Positions 9,449 to 64,000 are shown, numbered from the stretch's first letter. The stretch is DNA of 64,000 nt from an uncultured Gammaproteobacteria bacterium (GCA_964522435.1 CAZFUL010000004.1:54360-118359), one strand, 5' to 3'. Numbers and translations: made by a program. Notes: a model not told the origin generated them from the letters alone.

Positions 9449-9574
9449 AGTAATAGCGTATATTCAAAGCGATAGAGGATCCTATCATGGCACTTTTCCT
9501 CTGTCAAGGGATGTTTTAGCTTGAATTTTATATGGTATTACGATAGGATGGTGAGGTATAACATATGTTTTATG

Positions 9575-16792: not shown

Positions 16793-16861
16793 GGTTGACA
16801 GAAATGGCATACTTTGCTAGCCTCTCTTCGCCAATCACGGCAACACACAAGGAGAAGCTCA

Positions 16862-17479
16862 ATGAGCTTGGCTGACATTGGATTTATCATGGTGTTGTTG
16901 TTCACCTTGCCCGAAGTTTGGGCAGAGTGGCTGCAAGGCCGGCGCATCCGATCGATGCAAACGGGCACCTCGGTGCCGGTGAGCACCAACTCCATTGACA
17001 TCGCAACCTTTTTTGCGTCGGCGATCTATGGATTGTTGTATCCGGGGTTCAGCTGGGCGTACTTTCTCAACGGTCTGTTGACTGGGCTGGCCTTTTTCTA
17101 CGTCGGTGTTGGACTCCGCAAGTATCGTCGTGCCACGTGGCGAAACTACGTACTGGATCTATTCCTCATCGGAAATTTAATCCTGATGGTCGTCGTGGAC
17201 CAAGGCAATCGCGAACTGCTCATGACGGGGTTTTTGCTCTATACCTTGATTGGCGAGAGCAAACTGCTTCATGAACTCTGGCGCGATGGACGAGGCGCGG
17301 TTGAGTTCAAGAAGGTTATGACCTGGTTGGTGAGCAACATCTCGTTCACCATCTATGGCTATGCAATACAAGACCCAGTGTTTTTGTATTGTTGCGGCGC
17401 CATCTCAGTGGTGCAAGCCATCCAGGTCGTCGTGTATCTTCGCGCACCACCACGCGAAGAAGAATCATCTGCGAGCTAA
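16862..17479 (+). CDS. Seven-TM small membrane protein encoded in a GC-rich island
   Basis: The sequence aaggag, 8 nt, then ATG (MSLADIGF...). About 7 hydrophobic helices in 206 aa. Composition is clearly GC-rich relative to the flanks. Confidence 0.5.
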   Translation: MSLADIGFIMVLLFTLPEVWAEWLQGRRIRSMQTGTSVPVSTNSIDIATFFASAIYGLLYPGFSWAYFLNGLLTGLAFFYVGVGLRKYRRATWRNYVLDLFLIGNLILMVVVDQGNRELLMTGFLLYTLIGESKLLHELWRDGRGAVEFKKVMTWLVSNISFTIYGYAIQDPVFLYCCGAISVVQAIQVVVYLRAPPREEESSAS

Positions 17480-17605
17480 GGCTCGTGTAGGAGTTGAAGC
17501 CATTGTGTTCAGGGTGGGGACACAATGGCTTCCCGAGGTTCCTTGTTTTTTCTCCATGTGCTATACTCTCTTTAGAATAATTATATTTAATTTATTGTAA
17601 GGGGT

Positions 17606-21758: not shown

Positions 21759-21841
21759 GCTCAGGTGGCGGAATGGTATACGCGCATGCTTGAGGTGCAT
21801 GTGGGAGTAATCCCGTGGAGGTTCAAGTCCTCTCCTGAGCA
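21759..21841 (+). tRNA. tRNA-Leu (anticodon GAG), type II with a long variable arm; no encoded CCA
   Basis: Acceptor GCTCAGG/CCTGAGC. Anticodon stem CATGC/GCATG with loop TTGAGGT (U33, GAG, G37). 15-nt variable arm TGGGAGTAATCCCGT. T-arm GGAGG-TTCAAGT-CCTCT. Discriminator A. Confidence 0.85.
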
Positions 21842-21850
21842 CAACGAAAA

Positions 21851-21880
21851 ACAACCCAATTACTGTAGGGTTGTTTTTGT
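21851..21880 (+). terminator. Intrinsic terminator after tRNA-Leu
   Basis: ACAACCCaattactgtaGGGTTGTttttt. Confidence 0.7.
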
Positions 21881-22015
21881 ATCCCCTTGTATATTGACAG
21901 AAAAGGGGATATATGCTAGGTTTGTTCACCTTTTGCGCCAGGACATATTGCGCAAGGGTGTTCCCACAACTAGGGATAGGCATTGCCATCCCACACTCAA
22001 AGAAGGAGAACGTCG

Positions 22016-22459
22016 ATGAATCGACTGTTCGTTCTCGGAATGGTTCTCTGTCTCGCCGTCGTCGGCTGCTGTGGCAGCCAGCTTCATCCGGCCGAGAAGG
22101 AGAAGTCGGCGGCCACGCTCAAGGCCGAAGCGGCCACCCGCGAGCGTTACGCCAAGGCCCAGGCCGACCGCAAGGCCCAGGCCGAAGCCAACCAGGCAAA
22201 GCAGCAGCGCAAGCAGGAGGAGCAGCTCGCTGCTGCCCGTGCGGCTGAGGACCAGCTCAAGGCCGAGCGCTTGGCCAAGGAGGAGCTGCGTCAGAACCAG
22301 CAGAGCCTCTCTGTCGAGTATATCAAGCGCCACGCGCGGGAACAGAAGGTCTGGGACTGCCAGGCCAAGGCCCGCGAGAAGGGGCAAGACCCCATCAAGA
22401 CCTGCGGCCCGCTCTACCTGCCGAAGAAAAAGAAAGGACGCCTCGCGTCCAGCAACTAG
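22016..22459 (+). CDS. Coiled-coil lipoprotein (Ala/Gln/Lys-rich) encoded in a GC-rich island
   Basis: gaaggag, 7 nt, then ATG. MNRLFVLGMVLCLAVVGCCGS is a lipobox-type signal. The mature part is an AEAATRERYAKAQADRKAQAEANQAKQQRKQEEQLAAARAAEDQLKAERLAKEELRQ coiled coil. Strong GC3 bias, unlike neighbouring genes. Confidence 0.6.
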   Translation: MNRLFVLGMVLCLAVVGCCGSQLHPAEKEKSAATLKAEAATRERYAKAQADRKAQAEANQAKQQRKQEEQLAAARAAEDQLKAERLAKEELRQNQQSLSVEYIKRHAREQKVWDCQAKAREKGQDPIKTCGPLYLPKKKKGRLASSN

Positions 22460-22535
22460 GCTTCTTCGGCGCCATTGTCTCCACCTCGACGTATCGTCGG
22501 GGTGGGGGCATTCAAAAAAATATATGTTATCTGAT

Positions 22536-22558
22536 ACAGCCACGGGCTGTTTTTTTTA
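22536..22558 (+). terminator. Intrinsic terminator after the GC-island lipoprotein gene
   Basis: ACAGCCacgGGCTGTtttttttt. Confidence 0.7.
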
Positions 22559-22587
22559 TAACAAAAAACCCCGATGTCATCGAGGTA

Positions 22588-22994
22588 CTTTGTTGTTCAT
22601 CAGGCGTAAGCCGAATTTTGTCTCCCAATGAAATCATTGGGTGATGATCATTTCTCTTGTTCCACTATTGCTAGGGGAATCTAACGAGCGAACTTTTCCA
22701 ATGCCGATAAATCGGCAAGGGCTGCTCTTTCTCTCCATAGGGTTTACCACCCCCGTTCCTCGCGGATGGGGGAGTATATTTGCTTTTGTCTATAGGGCAA
22801 AAACATATATACACTTTTCACCTTTCTCCCGATGTAATCGAGATAGTATTGTCTCTGTGGCACTGTCCCGAACGTAGCGTTACCGATACGTTGGTGGGTG
22901 TTACCCACTATGTGATTATCTCCCAGAGGGAGATGAGAGTTCGGACTTTCCTCCCCGACCTAAGGGTAGGGGCGATCATCTGCTTGATGAACTG
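22588..22994 (-). ncRNA. rnpB: RNase P RNA (bacterial type, about 405 nt)
   Basis: The reverse complement reads GUUCAUCAAGC...GGGGAGGAAAGUCCGAACUC...GGGUAACACCCACC...CAGUGCCACAGAGACAA...GGUAAACCC...GACAAAAUUCGGCUUACGCCUGAUGAAC. P4 forms as AAG-U(bulge)-CCGAA with UUCGGCUU. A GG/CC to AA/UU compensatory change relative to E. coli supports the pairing. P1 is GUUCAUCA/UGAUGAAC. A terminator hairpin and U-run follow on the minus strand at 22562-22590. A TATAGT -10 and a TTGACC -35 lie upstream at 22999-23027. Confidence 0.88.
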
Positions 22995-38397: not shown

Positions 38398-39105
38398 ATG
38401 GATGAGGTTACGCGTTCGACCACACCACTGAGCACGCATCAAAAAGCAGGCTTTGTGCTCTTGCTTGTTTTTGGTTTATTGGCTGTTGGATTAGGAGCCT
38501 TACAAATGAGAAATACGATTTATAGTCCCTTTGCCTATAAATCACCAACTACGATCGCGCGTACCACAGAGGATTTATTACAAGATGAAACAATTCGATT
38601 ACAATCAATTGATACGGATCAAGATGGTCTGAGTGATTATGAAGAATTGTATTTTTATCAAACCAGTCCGTATATTCCCGATACAGATTCTGATGGCATA
38701 TCAGATAAAGCCGAATTAGATGCCTCAAGTGACCCTACTTGTCCGCAAGGAGCGGTGTGTGATGGCTCGGATCAATTTTTTACCTCACAAGCAAGTAGTA
38801 CCGCAACAACTCCTATGGGGATTCCAAGCGGGTTAGGGGCTGATGGTATTTTGCGCCAAGTAGATACGAGTATTGCGCAAGGTCAAGAAGTAGATTTGGG
38901 TGCGTTGCTTGGCAATGTTGACGCGGTACGAGAAATTATTGCGCAAACAGGAAAAATTCCCAAAGAACAATTAGACCAAATTGATGATCAAACATTATTG
39001 AATTTGGTTATTGAAATAATGGCAGAAGAAGAGACGTCACCGGCTGTCCCATTGCCGACAGAGGAAGCGTCTGCGTCAACAACGTTTGACACAACACTGC
39101 CTTGA
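38398..39105 (+). CDS. Membrane-anchored protein with two canonical EF-hand-type calcium-binding loops
   Basis: TM segment AGFVLLLVFGLLAVGLGALQM. DTDQDGLSDYEE and DTDSDGISDKAE both fit DxDxDGxxxxxE exactly. Acidic C-terminus. Immediately precedes the giant ORF. Confidence 0.55.
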   Translation: MDEVTRSTTPLSTHQKAGFVLLLVFGLLAVGLGALQMRNTIYSPFAYKSPTTIARTTEDLLQDETIRLQSIDTDQDGLSDYEELYFYQTSPYIPDTDSDGISDKAELDASSDPTCPQGAVCDGSDQFFTSQASSTATTPMGIPSGLGADGILRQVDTSIAQGQEVDLGALLGNVDAVREIIAQTGKIPKEQLDQIDDQTLLNLVIEIMAEEETSPAVPLPTEEASASTTFDTTLP

Positions 39106-39122
39106 TATTATCTAGCTACTTT

Positions 39123-42100
39123 ATGAGAAAATTGTTTCCTGTTGCTCTTGTCTGTCTTTTTATCATCATGCAATTGTTTGGGGTATTTTTATTTGCCCAA
39201 CCAGCAAAAGCAGTATTTGGTGCAGGAGATATATCTTTTGATCCTCAAGCCTGGATACAACGAGAGAAGCATTATGCCGGAGATAAAGTAGAAGCAACCG
39301 TTACAGAGAGTGTTTTGTCTGCGGTCATGGGTTCTTTATTACATGCAACATCCTACTTTACGAGAAAATTGGCCTATGACGCAGCACTCTATGTTGCCTA
39401 TGGGGGAAAAGGACAAGGGTCGTTAGCCTACAAAGAGGGGGCGGCTGCGTATTTTGAAAAAGTGTCTAAAGATACGGCGGCAGATGCTATTGGTGAGTTG
39501 GGAAAACCATTTGGTTTAAATTTGTGTCAGATTCCCGATCTTCGCTTAAATATTTTTCTTCAAGTTGGCTTATCTAACCGATTTGCCGTAGAACCCACCC
39601 CCAATTGTCGCTGGCAAGATTTAAAAGAAGGCGGTATTTTTGATGGGGCTGCCTGGGTACAACGTTATGGAACAGAAGAGGGATTAGCAGAAACCTTTAG
39701 TGCGACCTTAAGTGTTGATAATACTGATTTTGGTATTGCCCTAGGCGCCATTGGACAAATTAGTGATTTGCAAGCGGGCGCAGAAGCAGCAGCGCGTCAA
39801 GACAGAACAGAAGGGCAAGGCTTTAAACCGTTGACCAGTCTTATTTCAGGTGATATTAAAACTCCCGCACAAATTGTGCGAGAAGAAACAAATGCGTTGA
39901 CGGCAAAACATCAAGGAGAATTATCTGCTGGGCAAATTGCCGGTATTTATGGCAGTGGGTTAAAGCAAGTTCCTGCCATGGCCGCGTCTGTCTTTTTAAA
40001 TAGTTTAACAGCAACATTATTAAATCGTTTACTCACAGAAGGGTTATTTCCAGAAGGAAGTGATGCGCCGGGCTTTCAATCAGGGGTGTTTTCATATACC
40101 TCGTCGCCATTTACGCAAAATTCACGAGCAAGAAATGCGTTTAGCTTTTTATTAACTATTCGACCAGAACAGTTAACTAACTTTAACATTGTGGCAGAAT
40201 TTGCCGCATGTCCAGAACACCCTGGGTTAAATAATTGTGTTATTGATAGTGACTTACAACAAGCCTTGGTTCAAGCAAAATCTGGGACTCCCATGACAAT
40301 TCAGGAGGCAATAGATATTGGCTATTTAAATAAAGATTGGCCCCTTATTTCACCACGCAATAATCAACATACCATTGAAAATTGCCAAGTGGGAAGATAT
40401 TGCTATTCCAATATTCAAAAAATGAGAAAAGTTCGCATCTTGCCTTTGGGATTTGAAATTGCAGCATTGCGTTCTGATCCAGATAATCCCTGGACATTAG
40501 GTCAAGTGGTACAAGGATTTGAAAAATGTAGACGAGATGACCCAAATAATCCAGATGCAATAACACCTGATCCTGCGTTTCCTTTTTGTCATTTAATTAA
40601 TCCAAATTGGACAATTGCGGTACCGTCAACTCGTTGTGAATTAAATACCTATGGTCCACAATTACATGCAGAAGATTCTCCAAGTCGTCGTCGAGAATGT
40701 ATGGATATCTCTACCTGTTTGGCAAAAGGGCCAAATGGAGAATGTATTGATCATGGCTACTGTACAAAAGAAAAAAATGTTTGGGATTTAAATGCGGATA
40801 CTTGTCCTGCGTATTACAATAGTTGTGATACCTATACAAACACGGAAGATCGTTTTATTGCGTCATATTTAACACGCAGTTTAGATTTTGGTCAATGTAC
40901 TGCTGACACGGTAGGCTGTCGCGCATTTAGTTTAGAACAAATTGCCGAAGATAATTGGGAATCTTCTGCAGCGGACCGTCGATTAGCCTATGTTGCACAA
41001 GGAAGAAACGAACGGATTCACTTTACCGATGCGATTACTGCCATCAGTTCTGTTTGTAGTGCCGCAAGTGATGGTTGTCGTGCGTTTATCCCTGCCGCGC
41101 GTTATATTAATGGTTTGTTTGTTCAAAATGAACAAGGCGCATATCAACAACAAGAGGATACAAGTACGTTATTGCACTTGAAACGGGCACCAGACTATTT
41201 GGGTTGTTATGATACCAATAGAGCAGCGAATTCTCCAGAAATTAATTGGCCAACAACGGTACAAGAAGCACAAAATGTTGTTGCGCAAGATGCTCGATGT
41301 GATGCGTATGCGTCTGTTTGTGTGGAAGAAGAAGTTGGTTGTTCTGCCTATCAACCAACAGAAGGTGGTGTAGAAATACCTGGTGTTATTGGGGCACAAA
41401 ATGTTTGTGATGCAAGTTGTGTTGGGTATGATACCTTTAAACAATTGGGCTATGCTGATGTGGGACAAGGATTTGAAGATCCGGTATTTCCCTTGTACTT
41501 TATTCCTCGTATTGCAGAAGAACAAATGGCAGCACAAGGAACAATTTGTAGCGCAGAATTTGTTGGCTGTGACGAATTTACCAATCTCGATACTGTTGCA
41601 AATGGGGGAGAAGGCTTAGAATATTACACGTCGTTAACCCATTGTGAACAGCCAAGTGCTGATGGGGCAAATAGTCGGGTGTATTATTCTTGGGAAGGGT
41701 CTGTTCGTGAAGGATTCTTATTACAAACACATCGCGTTAAACCGATTGATGAACGAGATTTGAGTTATATTCAAGATACCTTAGAAATAGACGTTGACTT
41801 TAATTATTCTTTGGGTTCACCCATGTATGCGAATGATTCTCGCGATGCGCTTGCTAGTGCGTCTGCGCGTTGTAATGAACAAACCTATAACCTAAAAATA
41901 AATAATCCAGGTGATCTTAATAGTGCTCCAGATAACTGTCATGCGCTGTATGACACCGATGGGAATGTTTTTTATCGATTGGTTGGAGAATTAGTTGTGG
42001 TTTCTGATGCCTGTCATGCACTCCGAAAAACAGAGCCAGAAATTTATGCAGATACCACATTAGAACAACGTAGCTGTAGTGCTGATCGTGGAGAATGGAA

Positions 42101-45100
42101 TGCTGCAGAAAATAGTTGTACCCGTTGTGTGGGTGGTGGTGAATATCGTAATGGTGCTTGTATTTATTGGACTATTTCTGATACAACAACACAGTCACAA
42201 TCTTGTCCTGCACAAGCAAATGAATGTCGCGCGTATGCAGGAAACAATGCAGGAAATAGGGTAAATATTTTATCGCAACTTTTTGAACCAAGTAGTGAAG
42301 ATGCCAATGCCTTAGTGCAAGCCCAAGATGGATGGGAAGGATTAGTGGGCTCTGTGGTACGGGTTGTTTCTGATGCTAGTGATGTAGGGCTGCATTCATT
42401 ATTGTTAGAACAGGGCCGAGCGCGTATGCCATTATCTCCAACGAGCACGCCAGGACTGGTAAGTAATCAACGCTATGAAATAACGTTTTGGGCGCGCGGA
42501 GATGCGGGAACCATTCGTTTAGACGTCGTACAAAATAATAATCGACTTGCTACCTTTGCAGAGCAGGTGAGTATTGGAAATTCTTGGAATCGCTATCGTG
42601 TGGGACCTATTGATATTGGCACTATTGCCTCTGATCAACCGCTGTATTTGGTTATTACACCAAATGATGGAAACAACCGAGTATTTTTAGATACCTTTGT
42701 CTTTACTCGTATTCAAGATGTTGTGTACCTTACCAAGGATTCTTGGAAAACACCCGAAGGCTACAATGCGCCACTGTTGTGTGATGCGGTTCCCCAAGAT
42801 ACGCTTCCTGGCGAAGCATTGGGTTGTCGTTCGTATCAAGAAGTAAACGCAAAAGGGGTAAGCCGGTATGCAACTGGTTTTGAACGACTCTGTCGTGAAA
42901 AAGCGGTTGGTTGTATGCCCGTATGGGACACCTACAATACGGTAAGTGGGGAATCACCAGAGTTACCTCATGTGTATAATGTGTGGTGTGCGGGTAACGA
43001 AGGCGCAAATTGTGAAATTCGGGTAAATAATATTTTGCTTGGCGCTTGTGTTGTTGAACGTGGTTCAGTAAATAACGACGGGCAAAGTGGTTGTTATATT
43101 CGAGATAATGATAGTTTGGATATTGCCTTACCTCAAGGCATCACGATTGCGAATTTGCCTGCGGGATCTGTAAGTGATTCAACGGTGTACATTCCTGCGG
43201 ATACGCCAAGCTCAACACCCCTCTTTTTAGCGAATACAGAAAAACATCGTTGTCAGGAGTCTCAATTAGGTTGTGAACTAACCGGCGCAGAGCAACAATT
43301 ATTACCAGATCCAACGGTTGCTGTTTCTTATGAACACCAAGAAACACGAATAAAAAATGATCCTGCTTCATATAATGAGGTACTATGTAACGATACCTTA
43401 ATTGGTTGTGGAGAATTTGACCATGCGGGAGCACGCTCATTTTTTAGAGATCCCCGCTTTACTGGGAATGCTCTTTGTTCGTATCGAGAACAAAGCGACG
43501 ATGGACAAAATTATGGTTGGTATATTAATGACCAAAGTGTTGGTCGCTGTAGTCAGAGCGATACGCTTTGTCGTGAAGATGGAGACTGTTCTGGCGCAAA
43601 CGATCTTTGTGTGAGTAAGGGCAATGTTGCTTGTTATGACGATTTTGTTCAACGTGGTGGAGAATTTGGATTACGCAGTAATGGCTCTCCCGAGTACGCA
43701 GGCTTTGTTGGTACTTGCCCTGCGCAGTTTAACGAATGTACCCAATTGGTTGATCCAGAAGATACCTCAAATATTAATCCCAAAGGCCAACCGTACTATG
43801 TGGTATTTAACGATAAAATCACCAACAGATTAGGACAATGTAATACCGTCAGTCTAGAAGAGGGCTGTGTGTTATTTGATAAAACCGATGATCCAAATAA
43901 ATTGTATAATGCCTCAGCAACCTACGCATTGAGTACAACACAAGATCCTCCGTATGGCCCTGTTGCGCCAGTAACCACCGCAAGTAATAATGACCCAAGT
44001 AGTATTAATACGAACTTGTTATTAAAGGTAGATAGAGATAGAGCATGTAGTGAGTGGTTAGATTGTAAAAACTATGTTCCGGTTACTAATGCACAAGGAC
44101 AGCAAGAATTTTTGTGTTCACAGTATAAAGCCTGTGAAAAATTGAGCCCAGATGGTCGCTGTATTGGCTGGGTAGATGATTTAGCGACTCCAGAAGATAG
44201 AACACGAGCCACAGATCGCTTGACCTATGAACAATATATACAACGAGGCACGTCTTGGTATGCGGAAGAATTTAGTGGATATTCGTTATACGACAAATAT
44301 CAAATTACCAATTTAGCCCAACTTGCATTTAATTTTGAAGAATTAAACGACGACGTTGCTGCCGCGCTTGTGCCAGTAACAAATGAAACATTTATTGCTC
44401 GTGTGCTCGATGATCGGTTATTCCGTTATAACAATGCGGAAGATTTGGACTGTATTGATGAAACCGTGACCTCAACAGATTGGCTCTCCTGTGGATTTGA
44501 CAATCAAGGGTTATGTTATAGAAAAAAATGTGTGTATCCAATAGATGGTGGCTTTGGTTTGGATGAGGTTGATACCACAAATGTGGCAGATATTCAGCGA
44601 TCACTCAACTTGCTTGAAGCAAACTCATGTAAAGGTTTCCCTGAAGAAGAAAGTCCTTTTTCTCAACGGATTATTCCTCCAGGAGGCATTCTTGATAGAG
44701 TATCTCAGTATGGCCTGAGAAAAGAGTTTGTCAAATACAATCAGGGATATGCGAATATTAATGTTTGCCAAAGTGGTGAATGTTCTTGTGAGTATCAAAA
44801 GGTATCATACAATCATGGCGTTGTTGATTATATTTCGTTTAATGACGCTGCGCAATCAACAATTGTTGGAATTTGTTCCGGAGGAGACGCGACTACTGCG
44901 GGATTACCCTGTACTCGTGATAGTGAATGTATTGGGCGAGGGGCAGCGAATCAGGGTGATGTTGCTCAAACAGGGACCTGTAATTTAGTGCGCGAAACAC
45001 AAAGTGTCTTTGGCTTACGTGGCTTTTGTTTAGAGCGAGACCTTTCTCGTCCATCTCCAGTGGACCCAAGTGGTTATGAATGTCTTACCTGGTTACCAGT

Positions 45101-48100
45101 ACAAACCTCTGTTGGTCGTGCTGATATCTTTAACAGTTCATTAAGTGCGGGATATAACCCGACTCTTGATGCAGAATCTGGATTTGGAAAATTATATTGT
45201 AGTAATGGAAGTACCTACGAACGAGTAAATGCACAAGATAATGAACGTATTGTGGATGCGTTACGAGATATTGCAGGGAATGTGGCAAATAGTGAAACCA
45301 TATTTCCTCCACATAATATCACCACCTGTCAGGTAGACGCAGATGGACAATTTGGTGGCGCTGAACCGCCAACAGCATTTCATAGTTGGAATTGTGGCGC
45401 GGATGATGATAATGGTATGCCTGTATCATTTTTAACCTCTTGGGCGAGAAAATATTTGGATGTTTCTGCACAAGTGTTGCGTATTGAAACACCAATTACC
45501 ACACCAGAAGATGGAAAATTCTATAATGTGCATGGAAATATTCCTAACTATAATCCCTTAAATGGCGGAAATGCTGGTGGTGGTTGTGGTTCCGGAGATG
45601 ACAACGGCAGTCCTGCCTGTACGATTCATAGTTTTGGACCCGTGAGCATTAACAATGTTCTTGATTACGGAACTATTATGCATCCCCCACGCTATTGGGA
45701 TACGCCCCGAGACAGTTTGCTGCAGTGTAGTGGACAAATGTGTATTGATACGACAGCAGCCTGTGATGATAAAAATAATCCAGATTGTTGGATTCGTTGT
45801 GGGAATGAAGTATTACAACCAGGATATAATGGCCCGTTAGAAGAGGTGGGTCCTCGTACTATTCCAGAATGTGGCTACTCATATAAATCATTCTATTACA
45901 CTACCGGAAGCGGTGTTACTGTGGCGTCTCATCCCTTATCACCAGAATTTGCCATGTACCAAAGTAACCGTCCTGCAAATGATCCAGAACTCGATGATTA
46001 TGTGACTGATGCGCGAGGAAATAGTATTTTGAATCGCCAAGACATAGAAAGCGTGATAACAGAAAAAGAATTAAATCGCGTGTATTTCTTGATTACCGGG
46101 TTTCCCCATAATGCAGATGGTCGATTTCCTACGATTATGAGTGATCGGGTGTACCTTGACTTTTTGAAACTACAAGAACAAGGGCATGATATTCGGCCAA
46201 AATCTGTTCCTGTTGCGGATGGGCGAGAACAATATTTTCCATTGCTCAACAATGATTTTGTGGATGGATCTGTTTACAGTTATTTGTTAACCACGGAAAA
46301 CGGCGGTACCTTTACCTATGATGATTATGATGATTTAAATCAATTAAATGGTCATTTAGTTTCGTTAAAAGATCTTGAGCGTAATCGTATACACCATCGC
46401 TATGTCATGATCTATCATAAAGATGCGAATGAAGAGTTAGAAGGAAATTTGGGAGATGCGGGACGCATTCCGGATGTATTTAATGAGCGCAATACCGTAT
46501 GTGCAGAACGAAGTAGTAATTGGTTTGCCATTGGGATGGACTTTAATGAAGATGGTGAATTCTTGGGCTATATTACCCGGTTCTGTAATGGATTTGCGGC
46601 AAGAGTCGATGACGGAAATGGTATTCAATTTGCGGTGGTAGCAACTAAAAATGTGCAATGTCTAGAAATACAAGAAGTACATCGCTCCAGTGGGGTTAAT
46701 CCCTTACAAGATAGTACCAACAAAGCCTGGACAAATCGCTTGTGGGTCGGTGCCTTACAAACCCATCCAAGCAACAATTATCGTGGCATTGGAGCTGGGG
46801 TTCCGTTAAAAGAACAACAAGCAACGCCTTTTGGGTCATTAGCCATTCCATCAGCGGCGTTAGTTGAGGGACAATTATTTCCATTGAAAAATTATTACTT
46901 TGTTGATCCGGCAACTGATGGTATTCCTTATAGTTGTGGAAATGGAAATAGTGATGTGGATTGTTATTTACTGCGTAATGGAAATGAAAAACGCTTTAGT
47001 ACCTATCAATATCCACAAAACGTGGTGAGTATTCTTGATGGAAAAGGAGCAGCAGATGGTATTGCCGCAATTAACCAATTGTTTGCAAAATCATTTACCA
47101 TTTCTCGCTTACTAGAAGGACGGTTACGAACCGTTGCTGTTGGTACGGATATTTCGTATCAAGAAGGAATTGATGGGGGACGATTATTACCACAAGTATA
47201 TTCATTAAATCCGGTAACCTGTGCGCTCGGTCGTGATCATTGTACGCCGGCAGAAGCCAATGCCTTTTCATTAGGCAGACGAAATGGGGTGGCGAATGCG
47301 GATTATGATAATAATGGCATTCCAGACGAAGATAGTGATGGAGATGGACAAGCGGATGCGCTCATTGAAACCTCTGGCAGTTATGTTGCGCAATTACGCT
47401 TCTTCGCCTTTGCAGATGATAATCGCATGCCGCTTCGTCGTATTATGATTGATTGGGGTGATGGAGAAGATATTACCAATGAAAGTATCAAAGGCTTATA
47501 TAAAAATAGAAAACCGGTGTGTGAGGTAAGTAATGATCCAGGCAAGAGTACCGTGGGATTATGTTTAACTGCAAATAATCGTCCAACCGGCATGACTTGT
47601 AGTGATACGCAAGCCTGTATTGTTGGTCAACGCTGTGCTTTACCGGATGAACTCGATCGTTTGGTAGCAGCAGGTACCTTATCTGCGGAGTATGGCAGTA
47701 AACGTTTTGGTAATTTAGAACGCAGTTGTGAACAGGGCAACTTTGATTATTATCACGAATATGTGTGTCAACAAAGTGATATTGAGGCACATGTCGCGTC
47801 TGTCTCTGCTGGTGGCATTGGCTTACCCTATGTCCGACAAGTGGGTGGGTTAGAGGATCAAGAACGCTTAAATGCCTTAGGCTTTACCAATCAAGACTAT
47901 GTTTGTGTGTTTCAACCCAAACTGCAAGTCATGGATAACTGGGGTTGGTGTACAGGCAGCTGTGTGCGGGATTATGATCGTAATGGAAATGAAATAGGTG
48001 CTCCTCAGGTAGGGTGTTATGAAAATTTTAGAGACCCCGAGGCTGCTATAATATTTCAATGTTCATCTGATAATGTGGGTGGTCGTGATAATCCTTGGAT

Positions 48101-48155
48101 ATTATATAAAAATGAAATTATTGTTGCTCCGGCTCTTGAACCAGAAAGAGACTAA
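39123..48155 (+). CDS. Giant (about 3010 aa) cysteine-rich secreted protein, unknown function
   Basis: Uninterrupted 9-kb frame. N-terminal signal MRKLFPVALVCLFIIMQLFGVFLFAQPAKA. Very high Cys content with no low-complexity repeats. An internal beta-sandwich/CBM-like stretch (EITFWARGDAGTIRLDVVQNNNRLATFAEQVSIGNSWNRYRVGPIDIG...LYLVITPNDGNNRVFLDTFVF). A C-terminal acidic Ca-loop-like run (NNGIPDEDSDGDGQAD). The ATG at 39123 is preferred over the TTG at 39102. Confidence 0.85.
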   Translation: MRKLFPVALVCLFIIMQLFGVFLFAQPAKAVFGAGDISFDPQAWIQREKHYAGDKVEATVTESVLSAVMGSLLHATSYFTRKLAYDAALYVAYGGKGQGSLAYKEGAAAYFEKVSKDTAADAIGELGKPFGLNLCQIPDLRLNIFLQVGLSNRFAVEPTPNCRWQDLKEGGIFDGAAWVQRYGTEEGLAETFSATLSVDNTDFGIALGAIGQISDLQAGAEAAARQDRTEGQGFKPLTSLISGDIKTPAQIVREETNALTAKHQGELSAGQIAGIYGSGLKQVPAMAASVFLNSLTATLLNRLLTEGLFPEGSDAPGFQSGVFSYTSSPFTQNSRARNAFSFLLTIRPEQLTNFNIVAEFAACPEHPGLNNCVIDSDLQQALVQAKSGTPMTIQEAIDIGYLNKDWPLISPRNNQHTIENCQVGRYCYSNIQKMRKVRILPLGFEIAALRSDPDNPWTLGQVVQGFEKCRRDDPNNPDAITPDPAFPFCHLINPNWTIAVPSTRCELNTYGPQLHAEDSPSRRRECMDISTCLAKGPNGECIDHGYCTKEKNVWDLNADTCPAYYNSCDTYTNTEDRFIASYLTRSLDFGQCTADTVGCRAFSLEQIAEDNWESSAADRRLAYVAQGRNERIHFTDAITAISSVCSAASDGCRAFIPAARYINGLFVQNEQGAYQQQEDTSTLLHLKRAPDYLGCYDTNRAANSPEINWPTTVQEAQNVVAQDARCDAYASVCVEEEVGCSAYQPTEGGVEIPGVIGAQNVCDASCVGYDTFKQLGYADVGQGFEDPVFPLYFIPRIAEEQMAAQGTICSAEFVGCDEFTNLDTVANGGEGLEYYTSLTHCEQPSADGANSRVYYSWEGSVREGFLLQTHRVKPIDERDLSYIQDTLEIDVDFNYSLGSPMYANDSRDALASASARCNEQTYNLKINNPGDLNSAPDNCHALYDTDGNVFYRLVGELVVVSDACHALRKTEPEIYADTTLEQRSCSADRGEWNAAENSCTRCVGGGEYRNGACIYWTISDTTTQSQSCPAQANECRAYAGNNAGNRVNILSQLFEPSSEDANALVQAQDGWEGLVGSVVRVVSDASDVGLHSLLLEQGRARMPLSPTSTPGLVSNQRYEITFWARGDAGTIRLDVVQNNNRLATFAEQVSIGNSWNRYRVGPIDIGTIASDQPLYLVITPNDGNNRVFLDTFVFTRIQDVVYLTKDSWKTPEGYNAPLLCDAVPQDTLPGEALGCRSYQEVNAKGVSRYATGFERLCREKAVGCMPVWDTYNTVSGESPELPHVYNVWCAGNEGANCEIRVNNILLGACVVERGSVNNDGQSGCYIRDNDSLDIALPQGITIANLPAGSVSDSTVYIPADTPSSTPLFLANTEKHRCQESQLGCELTGAEQQLLPDPTVAVSYEHQETRIKNDPASYNEVLCNDTLIGCGEFDHAGARSFFRDPRFTGNALCSYREQSDDGQNYGWYINDQSVGRCSQSDTLCREDGDCSGANDLCVSKGNVACYDDFVQRGGEFGLRSNGSPEYAGFVGTCPAQFNECTQLVDPEDTSNINPKGQPYYVVFNDKITNRLGQCNTVSLEEGCVLFDKTDDPNKLYNASATYALSTTQDPPYGPVAPVTTASNNDPSSINTNLLLKVDRDRACSEWLDCKNYVPVTNAQGQQEFLCSQYKACEKLSPDGRCIGWVDDLATPEDRTRATDRLTYEQYIQRGTSWYAEEFSGYSLYDKYQITNLAQLAFNFEELNDDVAAALVPVTNETFIARVLDDRLFRYNNAEDLDCIDETVTSTDWLSCGFDNQGLCYRKKCVYPIDGGFGLDEVDTTNVADIQRSLNLLEANSCKGFPEEESPFSQRIIPPGGILDRVSQYGLRKEFVKYNQGYANINVCQSGECSCEYQKVSYNHGVVDYISFNDAAQSTIVGICSGGDATTAGLPCTRDSECIGRGAANQGDVAQTGTCNLVRETQSVFGLRGFCLERDLSRPSPVDPSGYECLTWLPVQTSVGRADIFNSSLSAGYNPTLDAESGFGKLYCSNGSTYERVNAQDNERIVDALRDIAGNVANSETIFPPHNITTCQVDADGQFGGAEPPTAFHSWNCGADDDNGMPVSFLTSWARKYLDVSAQVLRIETPITTPEDGKFYNVHGNIPNYNPLNGGNAGGGCGSGDDNGSPACTIHSFGPVSINNVLDYGTIMHPPRYWDTPRDSLLQCSGQMCIDTTAACDDKNNPDCWIRCGNEVLQPGYNGPLEEVGPRTIPECGYSYKSFYYTTGSGVTVASHPLSPEFAMYQSNRPANDPELDDYVTDARGNSILNRQDIESVITEKELNRVYFLITGFPHNADGRFPTIMSDRVYLDFLKLQEQGHDIRPKSVPVADGREQYFPLLNNDFVDGSVYSYLLTTENGGTFTYDDYDDLNQLNGHLVSLKDLERNRIHHRYVMIYHKDANEELEGNLGDAGRIPDVFNERNTVCAERSSNWFAIGMDFNEDGEFLGYITRFCNGFAARVDDGNGIQFAVVATKNVQCLEIQEVHRSSGVNPLQDSTNKAWTNRLWVGALQTHPSNNYRGIGAGVPLKEQQATPFGSLAIPSAALVEGQLFPLKNYYFVDPATDGIPYSCGNGNSDVDCYLLRNGNEKRFSTYQYPQNVVSILDGKGAADGIAAINQLFAKSFTISRLLEGRLRTVAVGTDISYQEGIDGGRLLPQVYSLNPVTCALGRDHCTPAEANAFSLGRRNGVANADYDNNGIPDEDSDGDGQADALIETSGSYVAQLRFFAFADDNRMPLRRIMIDWGDGEDITNESIKGLYKNRKPVCEVSNDPGKSTVGLCLTANNRPTGMTCSDTQACIVGQRCALPDELDRLVAAGTLSAEYGSKRFGNLERSCEQGNFDYYHEYVCQQSDIEAHVASVSAGGIGLPYVRQVGGLEDQERLNALGFTNQDYVCVFQPKLQVMDNWGWCTGSCVRDYDRNGNEIGAPQVGCYENFRDPEAAIIFQCSSDNVGGRDNPWILYKNEIIVAPALEPERD

Positions 48156-48160
48156 CAAAA

Positions 48161-48191
48161 TAAAAAATCCCGATTCAATCGGGATTTTTTA
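48161..48191. terminator. Bidirectional intrinsic terminator after the giant gene
   Basis: aaaaaaTCCCGAttcaaTCGGGAtttttt. Confidence 0.8.
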
Positions 48192-48269
48192 TAGGACAGA
48201 ACAGAAAATAGCTTTTCTCCTTTGTCCTTTCTCCCGCCACAGTGTTGTGGCGGGGGTTGCAGAAGAGCA

Positions 48270-48842
48270 CTACTCGGACATCGAGCAGGTGGCTTCTGCA
48301 GTCATTGTGGGTCGTTCCGCGAAGATGGGTGGTCCATTGGGGCTATCGCGATGAAAGTCCCAGGTACAGTCCACGTCTTCATTCAACGAGAGCCATCCAT
48401 ATCGAGGCGTGGCTTGAGCAGAGTGGCCACAATACGCCCATCCTTCACGCAAAGTGGTGGTTGGGCACATGCAGGCCTCTCCTTCGCCGTTGTTGTCGCT
48501 GTCGAGCTGGTCGGGGTTCGGCACCTCGGGGCAGTTGTCGCAGGCATCGCCTACGCCATCACCGTCCGTGTCGGTCTGGTCGGGGTCGGGGTCGGCGGGA
48601 CAAATGTCCTCGCCGTCCTCGATCCCATCCGCGTCGTCATCGGGGGGCGGTGGCGGGGGGCAGTCTTCGCTGCACTCCGGGGGAGTGACGAGACAGCCTT
48701 GGGCTTCGTCCGCCTTGCCGTTGCAGTTGTCGACGGGGGGCATGGTGACCCCCCGACGCGGCTCGGAGGGGTCACCCTCGTCGCCGCAGCCACTGATGAC
48801 CGCCCCGAGCAGGGCGGCCAGAACCAGCGCAAAATAGCGCAT
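48270..48842 (-). CDS. Lipoprotein with thrombospondin type-3 calcium-binding repeats, encoded in a GC-rich island
   Basis: AAGGAGG, 5 nt, then [23 protein letters not shown] is a lipobox signal. [13 protein letters not shown] linker. TSP3 consensus [34 protein letters not shown]. Extreme GC3 bias. The longest ORF extends to 48935, but the SD and signal peptide favour 48842. Confidence 0.6.
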
Positions 48843-48915
48843 GGTCGCCTCCTTGCCGTGTCGTACACGGCGTTGCAATGGGCCCGGGGCTTCCGGGCAC
48901 AGGGAAATGAAAGGT

Positions 48916-48963
48916 ATTATAGAAACATCGTCCATGAATTATTCATGCACATGTTTCTATAAT
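48916..48963. repeat. 48-bp nested palindrome at the GC-island/native boundary
   Basis: ATTATAGAAACAT-cgtc-CATGAAT-T-ATTCATG-cac-ATGTTTCTATAAT. The 13-bp outer arms are perfect. The 7-bp inner palindrome is concentric. There is one indel in the connector. Confidence 0.8.
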
Positions 48964-49307
48964 ACGTTCAGTTCTCCTTAGTCGAAGAAGGCAACAACGA
49001 TAGAATTCTTTTATTGAAAAAGAACAAGAGGTAAAATTATTCTGTATAAATTAACTATTTCAGCAAAATTTGGCTTTGTCAAGCGCTTTTTATTGTTTTG
49101 TGGATAACTTGGTTACGAATCTACATCTGCCTGCCGGTAGGCAGGAATGAACACTCATTTACAAATAACTACAAATGTTCTTCGACAATATTCGTAGCCA
49201 TTTGTAGATTGGCATGTATTCGTATATTCGGAAATAGTAGATTCGTAAACTGTCTGTATGTTTATACACTGCATACCTATGCGACCTATTCTGCCCCATT
49301 CGCTTAT

Positions 49308-63372: not shown

Positions 63373-64000
63373 ATGAAAAAACAATCTGTTAGGAGTAATT
63401 TAAAGAAATATAGCCGACCACTCGCTGGTATTGTGGCTATGGTAATACTCTCTGGTTGTACACAGCAAGCACCATCGTATAATAATCTGTCTGAAACAGG
63501 GGTCATAACGAGTGGTCCTGAGGATACAGTCATTGTTCCCTCAGGAGAGGATGTCATTGTTGAAACAACAAATACGAGACCATCTGATGCGGATAGAGAC
63601 ACCTTTGAAATAATTAATCGATATTATTCAAAGGACAACAATCACGGTTTTATGAATGGCCATAAGATTGAAGGCAGTGATGGAAAAACATTTTCGTATA
63701 TTGCAGACTTTTATACAAAAGATAAAAATTTTGTATTTTATGGCAATGCAAAAATTGACGGAGCTGACCCAGATACATTTGAATTTTTAAATTTTCATTA
63801 CGCCAAAGATGCACATCATGGGTATTTTGATGGAAAAAAAATTGAGGGCAGTGATGGCGCTAGTTTTGAGGTAATTGATCTTGATTATGCCAAAGATATC
63901 CATACGGTTTATTATTTTGGAGAAAAAAAGATAGGGCAGAGCAGTAGTTTTATCAAATTAAACGATTCCTACGGAAAAGATAGTGACTATGCTTATTATA
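63373..64000 (+). CDS. Lipoprotein with DKNYY-family repeats (3' end lies outside the window)
   Basis: Signal peptide with lipobox ILSGCT. Tandem roughly 30-aa repeats of the form Y.KD.NH.YF.G.KIEG(A/S)D..TFE (DKNYY-type). The frame is open to the window end. Confidence 0.6.
   Translation, partial: MKKQSVRSNLKKYSRPLAGIVAMVILSGCTQQAPSYNNLSETGVITSGPEDTVIVPSGEDVIVETTNTRPSDADRDTFEIINRYYSKDNNHGFMNGHKIEGSDGKTFSYIADFYTKDKNFVFYGNAKIDGADPDTFEFLNFHYAKDAHHGYFDGKKIEGSDGASFEVIDLDYAKDIHTVYYFGEKKIGQSSSFIKLNDSYGKDSDYAYY

Follow-up and report, generated by a model that had tools for sequence, protein, structure and literature searches.

How does a single gene of conspicuously high GC content come to lie between two native, intact RNA genes of a low-GC genome? 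The question is raised by a 64,000-nucleotide stretch of DNA (GCA_964522435.1, CAZFUL010000004.1:54360-118359; the whole stretch is referred to below as the window, and positions are counted from its first letter) that is deposited under the name of an uncultured Gammaproteobacteria bacterium and has a mean GC content of 0.41 (41%). Its flanking genes have their best matches in metagenome-assembled genomes of Candidatus Magasanikbacteria, a group of Patescibacteria within the Candidate Phyla Radiation (CPR), and on this basis the recipient genome is a low-GC member of that group. The two RNA genes are tRNA-Leu(GAG) (21759-21842, plus strand; found by ARAGORN and matched by the Rfam tRNA model with 55 bits) on the left and a full-length rnpB, encoding class A bacterial RNase P RNA (22592-22991, minus strand; Rfam RF00010, 155 bits, model positions 1-367), on the right; in the window they are separated by a 749-bp spacer, most of which is taken up by a GC-rich block carrying one gene. 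We propose, with a probability of about 0.8, that this block is a recent horizontal acquisition of about 710 bp, the core of which derives from an unsampled high-GC organism and which was inserted into the tRNA-Leu(GAG)/rnpB spacer as a single-gene unit.

An insertion in the tRNA-Leu(GAG)/rnpB spacer

Related loci were retrieved through the sugar-transferase gene located downstream of rnpB (from a genome collection) and through the DAGK-like gene located upstream of the tRNA (from a metagenome collection). In four Magasanikbacteria loci (L082, L086, L003 and L005), the DAGK-like gene and tRNA-Leu(GAG) are followed by a single hairpin and then by rnpB, the two RNA genes being arranged tail to tail with a spacer of only ~32-39 bp. 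This hairpin has the A-run/stem/T-run form of a bidirectional terminator, and a hairpin at the same position is retained in the window (21847-21878, no strand; AAAAACAACCC / GGGTTGTTTTT, 11-bp arms), where repeat search, RNA folding and the comparison with the relatives identify it as the native terminator. The correspondence between the loci extends well beyond the spacer: L082 shares with the window the genes for a membrane protein, a histidine kinase, a bactofilin and the DAGK-like protein, followed by rnpB and the sugar transferase, and the syntenic neighbour genes are 60-72% identical (72% for the flanking protein of L082 and 66% for that of L086). When the junctions were aligned by eye, the window sequence GGGTTGTTTTTGT (to 21880) joined to CTTTGTTGTTCATC...TAAGCCGAATT (from 22588) matched the continuous ...GTTGTTTTTGTTGTCC...TAAGCCGAATT of the relatives. 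Given the spacer of 749 bp compared with 32-39 bp and this junction alignment, ~708 bp (21881-22588, plus strand) are extra in the window. The block is thus absent from all four relatives, which identifies it as an insertion, and the same gene was not seen at this locus in the related low-GC genomes.

The GC profile is in full agreement with the GC-rich block that the original prediction, made from the sequence alone, had placed between tRNA-Leu and rnpB, the inserted length of ~708 bp being given by the comparison with the relatives. GC content is ~0.36-0.42 at 21850-21900, reaches 0.60-0.74 over 22025-22400 (50-bp windows; 65-70% in the core) and returns to 0.32-0.38 by 22525-22550; in 150-bp windows, the run with GC of at least 55% extends from 21951 to 22530. 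The two strongest GC spikes of the entire 64 kb are this block and a segment at 48331-48950. The inserted DNA is not uniform, being composed of an AT-rich promoter module at the left end (21881-21925, plus strand) that contains an inverted repeat and the promoter, a GC-rich core (~21925-22510, plus strand) that contains an 87-nt leader, the coding sequence (CDS) and a 16-bp GC hairpin, and an AT-rich terminator module at the right end (22511-22588, no strand) that contains two back-to-back intrinsic terminators.

The same arrangement is present in L001, a 1205-bp contig that was assembled independently in Logan from run SRR12762285 and on which the identical protein is called. This contig reaches from the tRNA across the block and into rnpB, with both junctions the same as in the window. 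The whole island is identical, and the only four differing bases are all located in rnpB (22834, 22837, 22840 and 22841, corresponding to L001 1076-1083).

A gene with foreign codon usage

The inserted gene (22016-22459, plus strand) encodes a protein of 147 amino acids, and its assignment draws on the listing of open reading frames (ORFs), on GC content by codon position, on amino acid composition and on an AlphaFold model. The GC contents at the first, second and third codon positions (GC1, GC2 and GC3) are 0.69, 0.42 and 0.83, respectively. For the 41 native ORFs of the window, GC3 is 0.324±0.050 with a maximum of 0.47, which places the island gene at z=10. The preferences for Lys, Gln, Glu and Leu codons are inverted relative to the native ORFs: AAG accounts for 16/18 of the Lys codons (11% in native ORFs), CAG for 14/15 of the Gln codons (19%) and CTC for 9/14 of the Leu codons (9%). 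Codon usage and GC3 thus mark the gene as foreign, in line with the compositional argument and the strong GC3 bias of the original prediction. Furthermore, the order GC3>GC1>GC2 is found in the CDS frame only, whereas the antisense and shifted-frame ORFs lack it; judged by codon positions, this is how an authentic gene of high-GC origin looks. The CTC codons are decoded by the adjoining tRNA-Leu(GAG), which is probably a coincidence.

Promoter, leader and terminators of the inserted unit

An extended -10 promoter of host type is located on the plus strand at 21894-21922 (TTGACA at 21894-21899, a gap of 14 nt, TG at 21914-21915 and TAGGTT at 21917-21922). Perfect sites of the form TTGACA-N14-TGnTAnnnT occur three times in the 64 kb, compared with 0.09 expected, and all three read TTGACAGA...TG[A/C]TAG[G/C]. 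One of the other two sites (9479-9507, minus strand) is upstream of a native DHH-family gene, and the other (16795-16823, plus strand; TTGACAGA...TGCTAG) is upstream of the first of two additional GC-rich genes described below, such that GC-rich foreign genes sit downstream of two of the three sites. Because the same architecture precedes the native gene at 9479-9507, the promoter at 21894-21922 appears to be of the recipient type rather than donor DNA, and the sites may represent a strong-promoter class of the recipient organism.

The same module contains a perfect 9-bp inverted repeat (21880-21888 / 21903-21911, no strand; TATCCCCTT / AAGGGGATA; repeat search), with the TTGACA hexamer enclosed in its 14-nt loop. 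A repeat of this kind with TTGACA in the loop had been noted at the left edge of the block; it is real, and its arms are 9 bp rather than 7 bp long. By its position relative to the hexamer, the repeat is a candidate operator. The background of such 9-bp inverted repeats in block-shuffled sequence is ~5.7 per 64 kb, and the occurrence of one at precisely this spot by chance is unlikely, although the spot was chosen after the fact. Two short strings of the left flank of the island also occur in the promoter/leader region of rplS, namely a 16-nt string at 867-882 (15/16 identical; TATCCC[C/T]TTGTATATT) and an exact 14-nt string at 951-964 (GAAAAACAACCCAA). They stand in reverse order in the island flank, hence are not colinear, and their recurrence is possibly due to chance.

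Transcription from this promoter would start near 21929, at the border of the GC-rich DNA, and would yield a 5' leader of ~87 nt (21929-22015, plus strand; GC ~0.5), the bounds of which rest on this predicted start. In the minimum free energy fold of the leader, the 5' end (GUUCACCUU) is paired with the Shine-Dalgarno region (AAGGAGAAC), with z=-3.06. We considered the leader as a structured RNA or riboswitch and rejected this interpretation, no Rfam family being matched at E<=1 beyond terminator-like noise. The Shine-Dalgarno sequence AAGGAG (22003-22008) is separated by 7 nt from the ATG at 22016.

Directly 3' of the stop codon is a GC-rich 16-bp hairpin (22476-22510, plus strand) that lacks a T tract (the RNA fold of 22457-22560 has -39.5 kcal/mol, z=-5.6) and is presumably a 3' structure brought along by the foreign DNA. 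The intrinsic terminator of the inserted gene follows in AT-rich DNA (22536-22558, plus strand; ACAGCCACGGGCTGT then T8; terminator scan and fold), and the gene accordingly has its own Shine-Dalgarno sequence, start codon and terminator, as had been proposed. Back to back with it is an intrinsic terminator of rnpB (22562-22586, minus strand; ACCTCGATGACATCGGGGT then TTTTTTG; terminator scan, fold z=-4.1). In the relatives, rnpB ends at the hairpin that it holds in common with the tRNA; the insertion has parted it from that hairpin, and the rnpB terminator of the window is a separate, new one that lies inside the inserted block. Read together, these signals would make the block an autonomous, moron-like transcription unit, in which a host-type promoter abuts foreign DNA and is followed by the 87-nt leader, a consensus Shine-Dalgarno sequence and one gene; transcription would be ended by the gene's own terminator, and the second, opposite-facing terminator would restore the termination of rnpB.

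A predicted lipoprotein with a long charged helix

The N-terminus of the 147-aa protein (MNRLFVLGMVLCLAVVGC) is a signal peptide with the lipobox VVGC, which fits the pattern [LVI][ASTVI][GAS]C in a rule-based scan and bears out the lipobox of the original prediction. The layout MNR-LFVLGMVLCLAV-VGC18 combines a positive n-region, a hydrophobic h-region and a lipobox within ~35 residues, that is, the features by which lipoproteins are recognized. Residues 1-17 are predicted to be cleaved off, and Cys18 would be lipidated and would anchor the protein in the outer leaflet of the cytoplasmic membrane. The same scan returned a similar lipobox candidate for a native AT-rich ORF at 63373, which suggests that the recipient makes lipoproteins. 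A publication that appeared to treat CPR lipoproteins (PMC13194787) deals with host lipoproteins and does not enter into this argument.

The mature protein of 129 residues is dominated by few amino acids (A24 K18 Q15 E14 R11). AlphaFold2, run on the single sequence without an alignment, yielded a model with a mean predicted local distance difference test score (pLDDT) of 82, in which the signal-peptide helix is followed by a linker, one unbroken 92-residue helix spanning residues 30-121 (block pLDDT 89-98), a short helix at 126-133 and a disordered basic tail. The C-terminal region contains two cysteines (C115 and C130) and the polybasic stretch PKKKKGR, the protein ending in ...KKKKGRLASSN. 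The mature part had originally been described as one long Ala/Gln/Lys/Glu coiled coil. The long helix is indeed predicted at residues 30-121, but the coiled coil is not borne out: no heptad (3.5-residue) hydrophobic periodicity was found in this helix, the moment at 102.9 degrees being 0.10 compared with 0.28±0.14 in shuffled sequences (z=-1.25). In the long helix, 39% of the residues are charged, L/I/V/M/F/Y/W account for only 12/92 residues, and opposite charges are paired at i/i+4 12 times compared with 6.5±2.1. In the model, the helix is more like a single alpha-helix or a stalk of the TolA-domain-II type than a canonical coiled coil. A charged single alpha-helix of this length would form a stalk of ~14 nm that displays the small two-Cys C-terminal element and the polybasic KKKK tail at the cell surface. 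With low confidence, we suggest from this model that the product is an envelope spacer, a tether or an adhesin-like surface protein, possibly with a role in host-cell contact.

The protein has the status of an orphan. Two libraries compiled from some 15 billion public proteins were searched, one of 5.8 billion clusters by word index and one of 1.84 billion representatives by full HMMER, and each returned only the identical Logan sequence. No relative was detected in viral contigs or, by tblastn, in plasmid and phage collections, and no family of Pfam, NCBIfam, PHROGs or PADLOC came near the threshold. The one phage-family match (E=0.0023, 18.9 bits) is to a PHROG with the annotation superinfection exclusion; it covers the signal peptide together with the low-complexity helix and does not rise above noise. 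The PDB holds neither a sequence relative nor a fold match (best Foldseek hit, E=1.3). A look for the lipoprotein in high-GC taxa, as proposed with the original prediction, gave no result.

Origin of the inserted block

The donor of the core would be an organism with a genomic GC content of roughly 65%. With regard to the route of entry, the original prediction had pointed to tRNA 3' flanks as classic sites of integration, while stating that no integrase, repeats or att-like (attachment site-like) duplication are visible. The latter statement was upheld by ORF scans and repeat searches. Pfam scans of the 18 large ORFs at 12.3-31.3 kb, which comprise housekeeping and envelope genes only, revealed no integrase, transposase or recombinase, and a repeat search of the junctions and flanks revealed no att-like repeat duplicating the 3' end of the tRNA. 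With the break located beyond the tRNA terminator, and with neither an att duplication nor an integrase present, classical integration at the tRNA site is unsupported. Two candidate target-site duplications were rejected: TTTGT (5 nt), found at 21876-21880 and 22589-22593, is too short to count, and ATATATG[C/T]TA, which brackets the GC core with 9/10 matches, is short and AT-rich, with an estimated chance probability of ~0.2. We also rejected a repeated cassette or miniature inverted-repeat transposable element, BLAST comparison of all island flanks with the window having found nothing in common except the promoter hexamers. We infer that the most economical route would be illegitimate or microhomology-mediated recombination, probably following DNA uptake, and not integrase-mediated integration at a tRNA site.

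Several other explanations have to be weighed against recent acquisition. An assembly chimera or contamination, with high-GC reads misjoined into a CPR contig, would account for the abrupt change in GC content, and the gene is missing from the NCBI protein set for the contig, being called as a protein only on the Logan contig. Yet both flanks carry on the same syntenic CPR locus, as in a clean insertion and not in a join at a contig end; L001 repeats both junctions identically while carrying the 4-base variant in rnpB, which is strongly against a misjoin; and the foreign ORF comes with a recipient-type promoter and AT-rich terminators. A chimera placed so neatly between syntenic neighbours, repeated in a second assembly and equipped with recipient-type signals is very unlikely. 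The odds are just as poor that native sequence turned GC-rich locally or that the block is a GC-rich non-coding element with a spurious ORF. High-GC DNA does give long ORFs in several frames (here, alternatives of 205, 186 and 111 aa), the protein has no homologues, and the GC-enriched gene of the first GC-rich unit has a positional homologue of native GC content; however, the relatives hold no sequence at this position that could have changed, no Rfam family was matched, and the frame-specific GC3>GC1>GC2 order, the Shine-Dalgarno sequence at 7 nt, the signal peptide with its lipobox and the confidently predicted helix all argue for a genuine gene.

The block could also be the remnant of a tRNA-targeted integrative island or prophage that has since lost its integrase and att sites, with one moron-like cargo gene left. 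The adjacent tRNA gene, the moron-like architecture (own promoter, own terminator and deviant composition) and the weak superinfection-exclusion match would fit such a history, but the break is located past the tRNA terminator and not in the tRNA 3' end, no tRNA sequence is duplicated, an integrase is missing from the surrounding ±9 kb or so, as are flanking repeats, the viral, phage and plasmid collections contain no relatives, and the PHROG match is mere noise; we consider this origin improbable. More room has to be left for a transfer in two steps, in which domestication of the gene, with acquisition of the AT-rich promoter and terminators, took place in a mobile element or a different Patescibacteria genome, from which it moved on as a ready-made cassette. 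This would be a variant of the best explanation, with only the immediate donor differing, and we regard it as a tentative possibility. It would account for ~45 bp of AT-rich promoter DNA and ~80 bp of AT-rich two-terminator DNA, both absent from the spacers of the relatives, and for a promoter that fits the extended -10 architecture of the recipient type; moreover, transfers of individual genes are reported to be frequent in Patescibacteria, with other Patescibacteria as the source of most of those detected (PMC12455944). On the other hand, no second copy of the gene or the cassette was found in any collection searched, GC3 of 0.83 indicates almost no amelioration and speaks against a long stay in low-GC genomes, and the AT-rich modules could equally stem from a longer ancestral spacer or from evolution in place.

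The following points weigh against recent acquisition from a high-GC donor, or against parts of this interpretation. The AT-rich ends, that is, the promoter and the two terminators, are unlike high-GC donor DNA, and a one-step transfer leaves them unexplained; they might come from a longer ancestral spacer, they might have evolved after the insertion, or an intermediate CPR genome might have supplied them together with the gene. No homologue was found in any collection searched, such that foreign origin rests on composition and phyletic absence only. The nearest relatives are distant (flanking protein 64-72% identical), and they fix neither the date nor the immediate source of the insertion. 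Finally, the helix was predicted without an alignment and may form an oligomeric coiled coil through Ala-rich seams.

Comparison with known systems

Phage morons are autonomous promoter-gene-terminator units of deviant composition that often encode lipoproteins. The inserted block resembles them in consisting of a single ORF with a promoter and a terminator of its own, in its sharp contrast in composition and in its lipoprotein product, and differs in that there is no prophage around it, no phage gene nearby and no phage relative, the lone phage-family match being the noise-level one. With tRNA-associated integrative islands it shares the adjacent tRNA gene and the foreign composition; unlike them, it lacks an integrase and any att repeat originating from the tRNA 3' end, is inserted past the tRNA terminator and measures only ~0.7 kb.

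As for the product, Lpp (Braun's lipoprotein) and TolA domain II are helical envelope spacers, and Lpp is a 58-aa protein with a heptad seam and a terminal Lys for linkage to peptidoglycan. The island protein likewise has a lipid or membrane anchor followed by a long helix rich in Ala, Lys, Glu and Gln, a basic C-terminus and a plausible role as a distance-setting stalk. In contrast to these proteins, it resembles no family in sequence or profile (neither Pfam nor NCBIfam yielded a match at cut-off) and has no heptad seam, and, compared with Lpp, its mature form has 129 rather than 58 aa and ends in ...KKKKGRLASSN instead of a terminal Lys.

The closest parallel in terms of the event itself is provided by the individually transferred genes and small islands that have been catalogued in Patescibacteria (PMC12455944), where single genes of deviant composition likewise reside in syntenic, streamlined CPR genomes devoid of mobility genes. 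The present case differs from that catalogue in its unsampled, high-GC and hence non-CPR donor, the catalogued transfers being mostly within Patescibacteria, in that its gene is not a metabolic or regulatory one but encodes an orphan envelope protein, and in being essentially unameliorated.

Taken alone, the insertion is an ordinary horizontal gene transfer with an uncharacterisable orphan product; events of this kind are known, and the mechanism is not new. Its value would lie in being a clean, well-bounded case of recent cross-phylum gene gain by a streamlined CPR genome, with the empty site kept in relatives and the junctions nearly base-resolved. The unit carries all expression signals, including a repaired terminator for its essential neighbour rnpB, and shows how a minimal genome could add a surface protein without the machinery of mobile elements.

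Other GC-rich units in the window

Two further GC-rich units are present in the window. The first (16795-17540, plus strand; gene at 16862-17479) encodes a 205-aa multi-pass membrane protein with GC3 of 0.66 and a weak match to the MtN3/PQ-loop family. At the syntenic place, L082 has a homologue of normal GC content (68-514) that is 31% identical to it, compared with 60-72% for the neighbours, which suggests that this unit is a replacement by a foreign homologue rather than a simple insertion. The third unit (48160-48990, minus strand; gene at 48270-48842) has GC3 of 0.73, and its product is a lipobox protein of 190 aa that contains thrombospondin type-3 repeats. The homology of this protein is limited to the repeat, which is shared with MYXO-CTERM/MtsC-like and many other proteins. 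The gene is convergent with a giant gene (39102-48155), and a bidirectional terminator is common to both; the giant gene, located immediately upstream of the unit, has native composition and encodes a 3017-aa Cys-rich secreted or surface protein. Upstream of the third-unit gene is a 53-nt near-palindrome (48914-48965) ending in TATAAT.

All three GC-rich units, the insertion at the tRNA-Leu(GAG)/rnpB spacer included, encode envelope proteins, namely two lipoproteins and one multi-pass membrane protein. Together they hint that Magasanikbacteria sample envelope proteins of their high-GC neighbours, which could help to guess their hosts. We considered a single donor for the three islands and make no such claim, as GC3 (0.66, 0.83 and 0.73 for the first, second and third unit, respectively) and the Leu and Pro preferences differ and the codon tables are too small. 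A bolder reading is that the three units reflect repeated capture of envelope genes from the symbiont's own high-GC host, acquired by DNA uptake during episymbiosis, followed by re-promotion and use as surface mimics or adhesins. The first and second islands share the rare TTGACAGA...TG[A/C]TAG promoter type. We hold such a capture to be unlikely; if it did take place, unameliorated islands would be a genomic tracer for the hosts of uncultured CPR bacteria.

Variation of the locus among related genomes

In two other related loci, L083 (3915-4111) and L084 (4936-5199), tRNA-Leu(GAG) is followed not by rnpB but by a promoter and an AT-rich gene for a secreted protein. This arrangement implies that the region downstream of tRNA-Leu(GAG) was rearranged more than once in the clade. 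Elsewhere in Magasanikbacteria or other Patescibacteria, short intergenic patches of 69-71% GC were found in L002 (5421-5700) and L004 (2361-2620), with no convincing ORF and no Rfam match; similar foreign insertions may have left them behind, or they may be structured elements.

The rnpB gene itself varies at two levels. Between the window and L001, the differing bases fall in a short segment (22834-22841) that reads GATGTAATCGAG in the window and GATATACTCAGG in L001, probably reflecting strain microdiversity in a peripheral hairpin of the RNA. Across the loci, the length of the Rfam match ranges from ~365 to 543 nt (L082 5013-5555, L006 5245-5713, L009 5439-5906 and window 22592-22991), and this spread points to variable expansion segments in the RNase P RNA of Magasanikbacteria.

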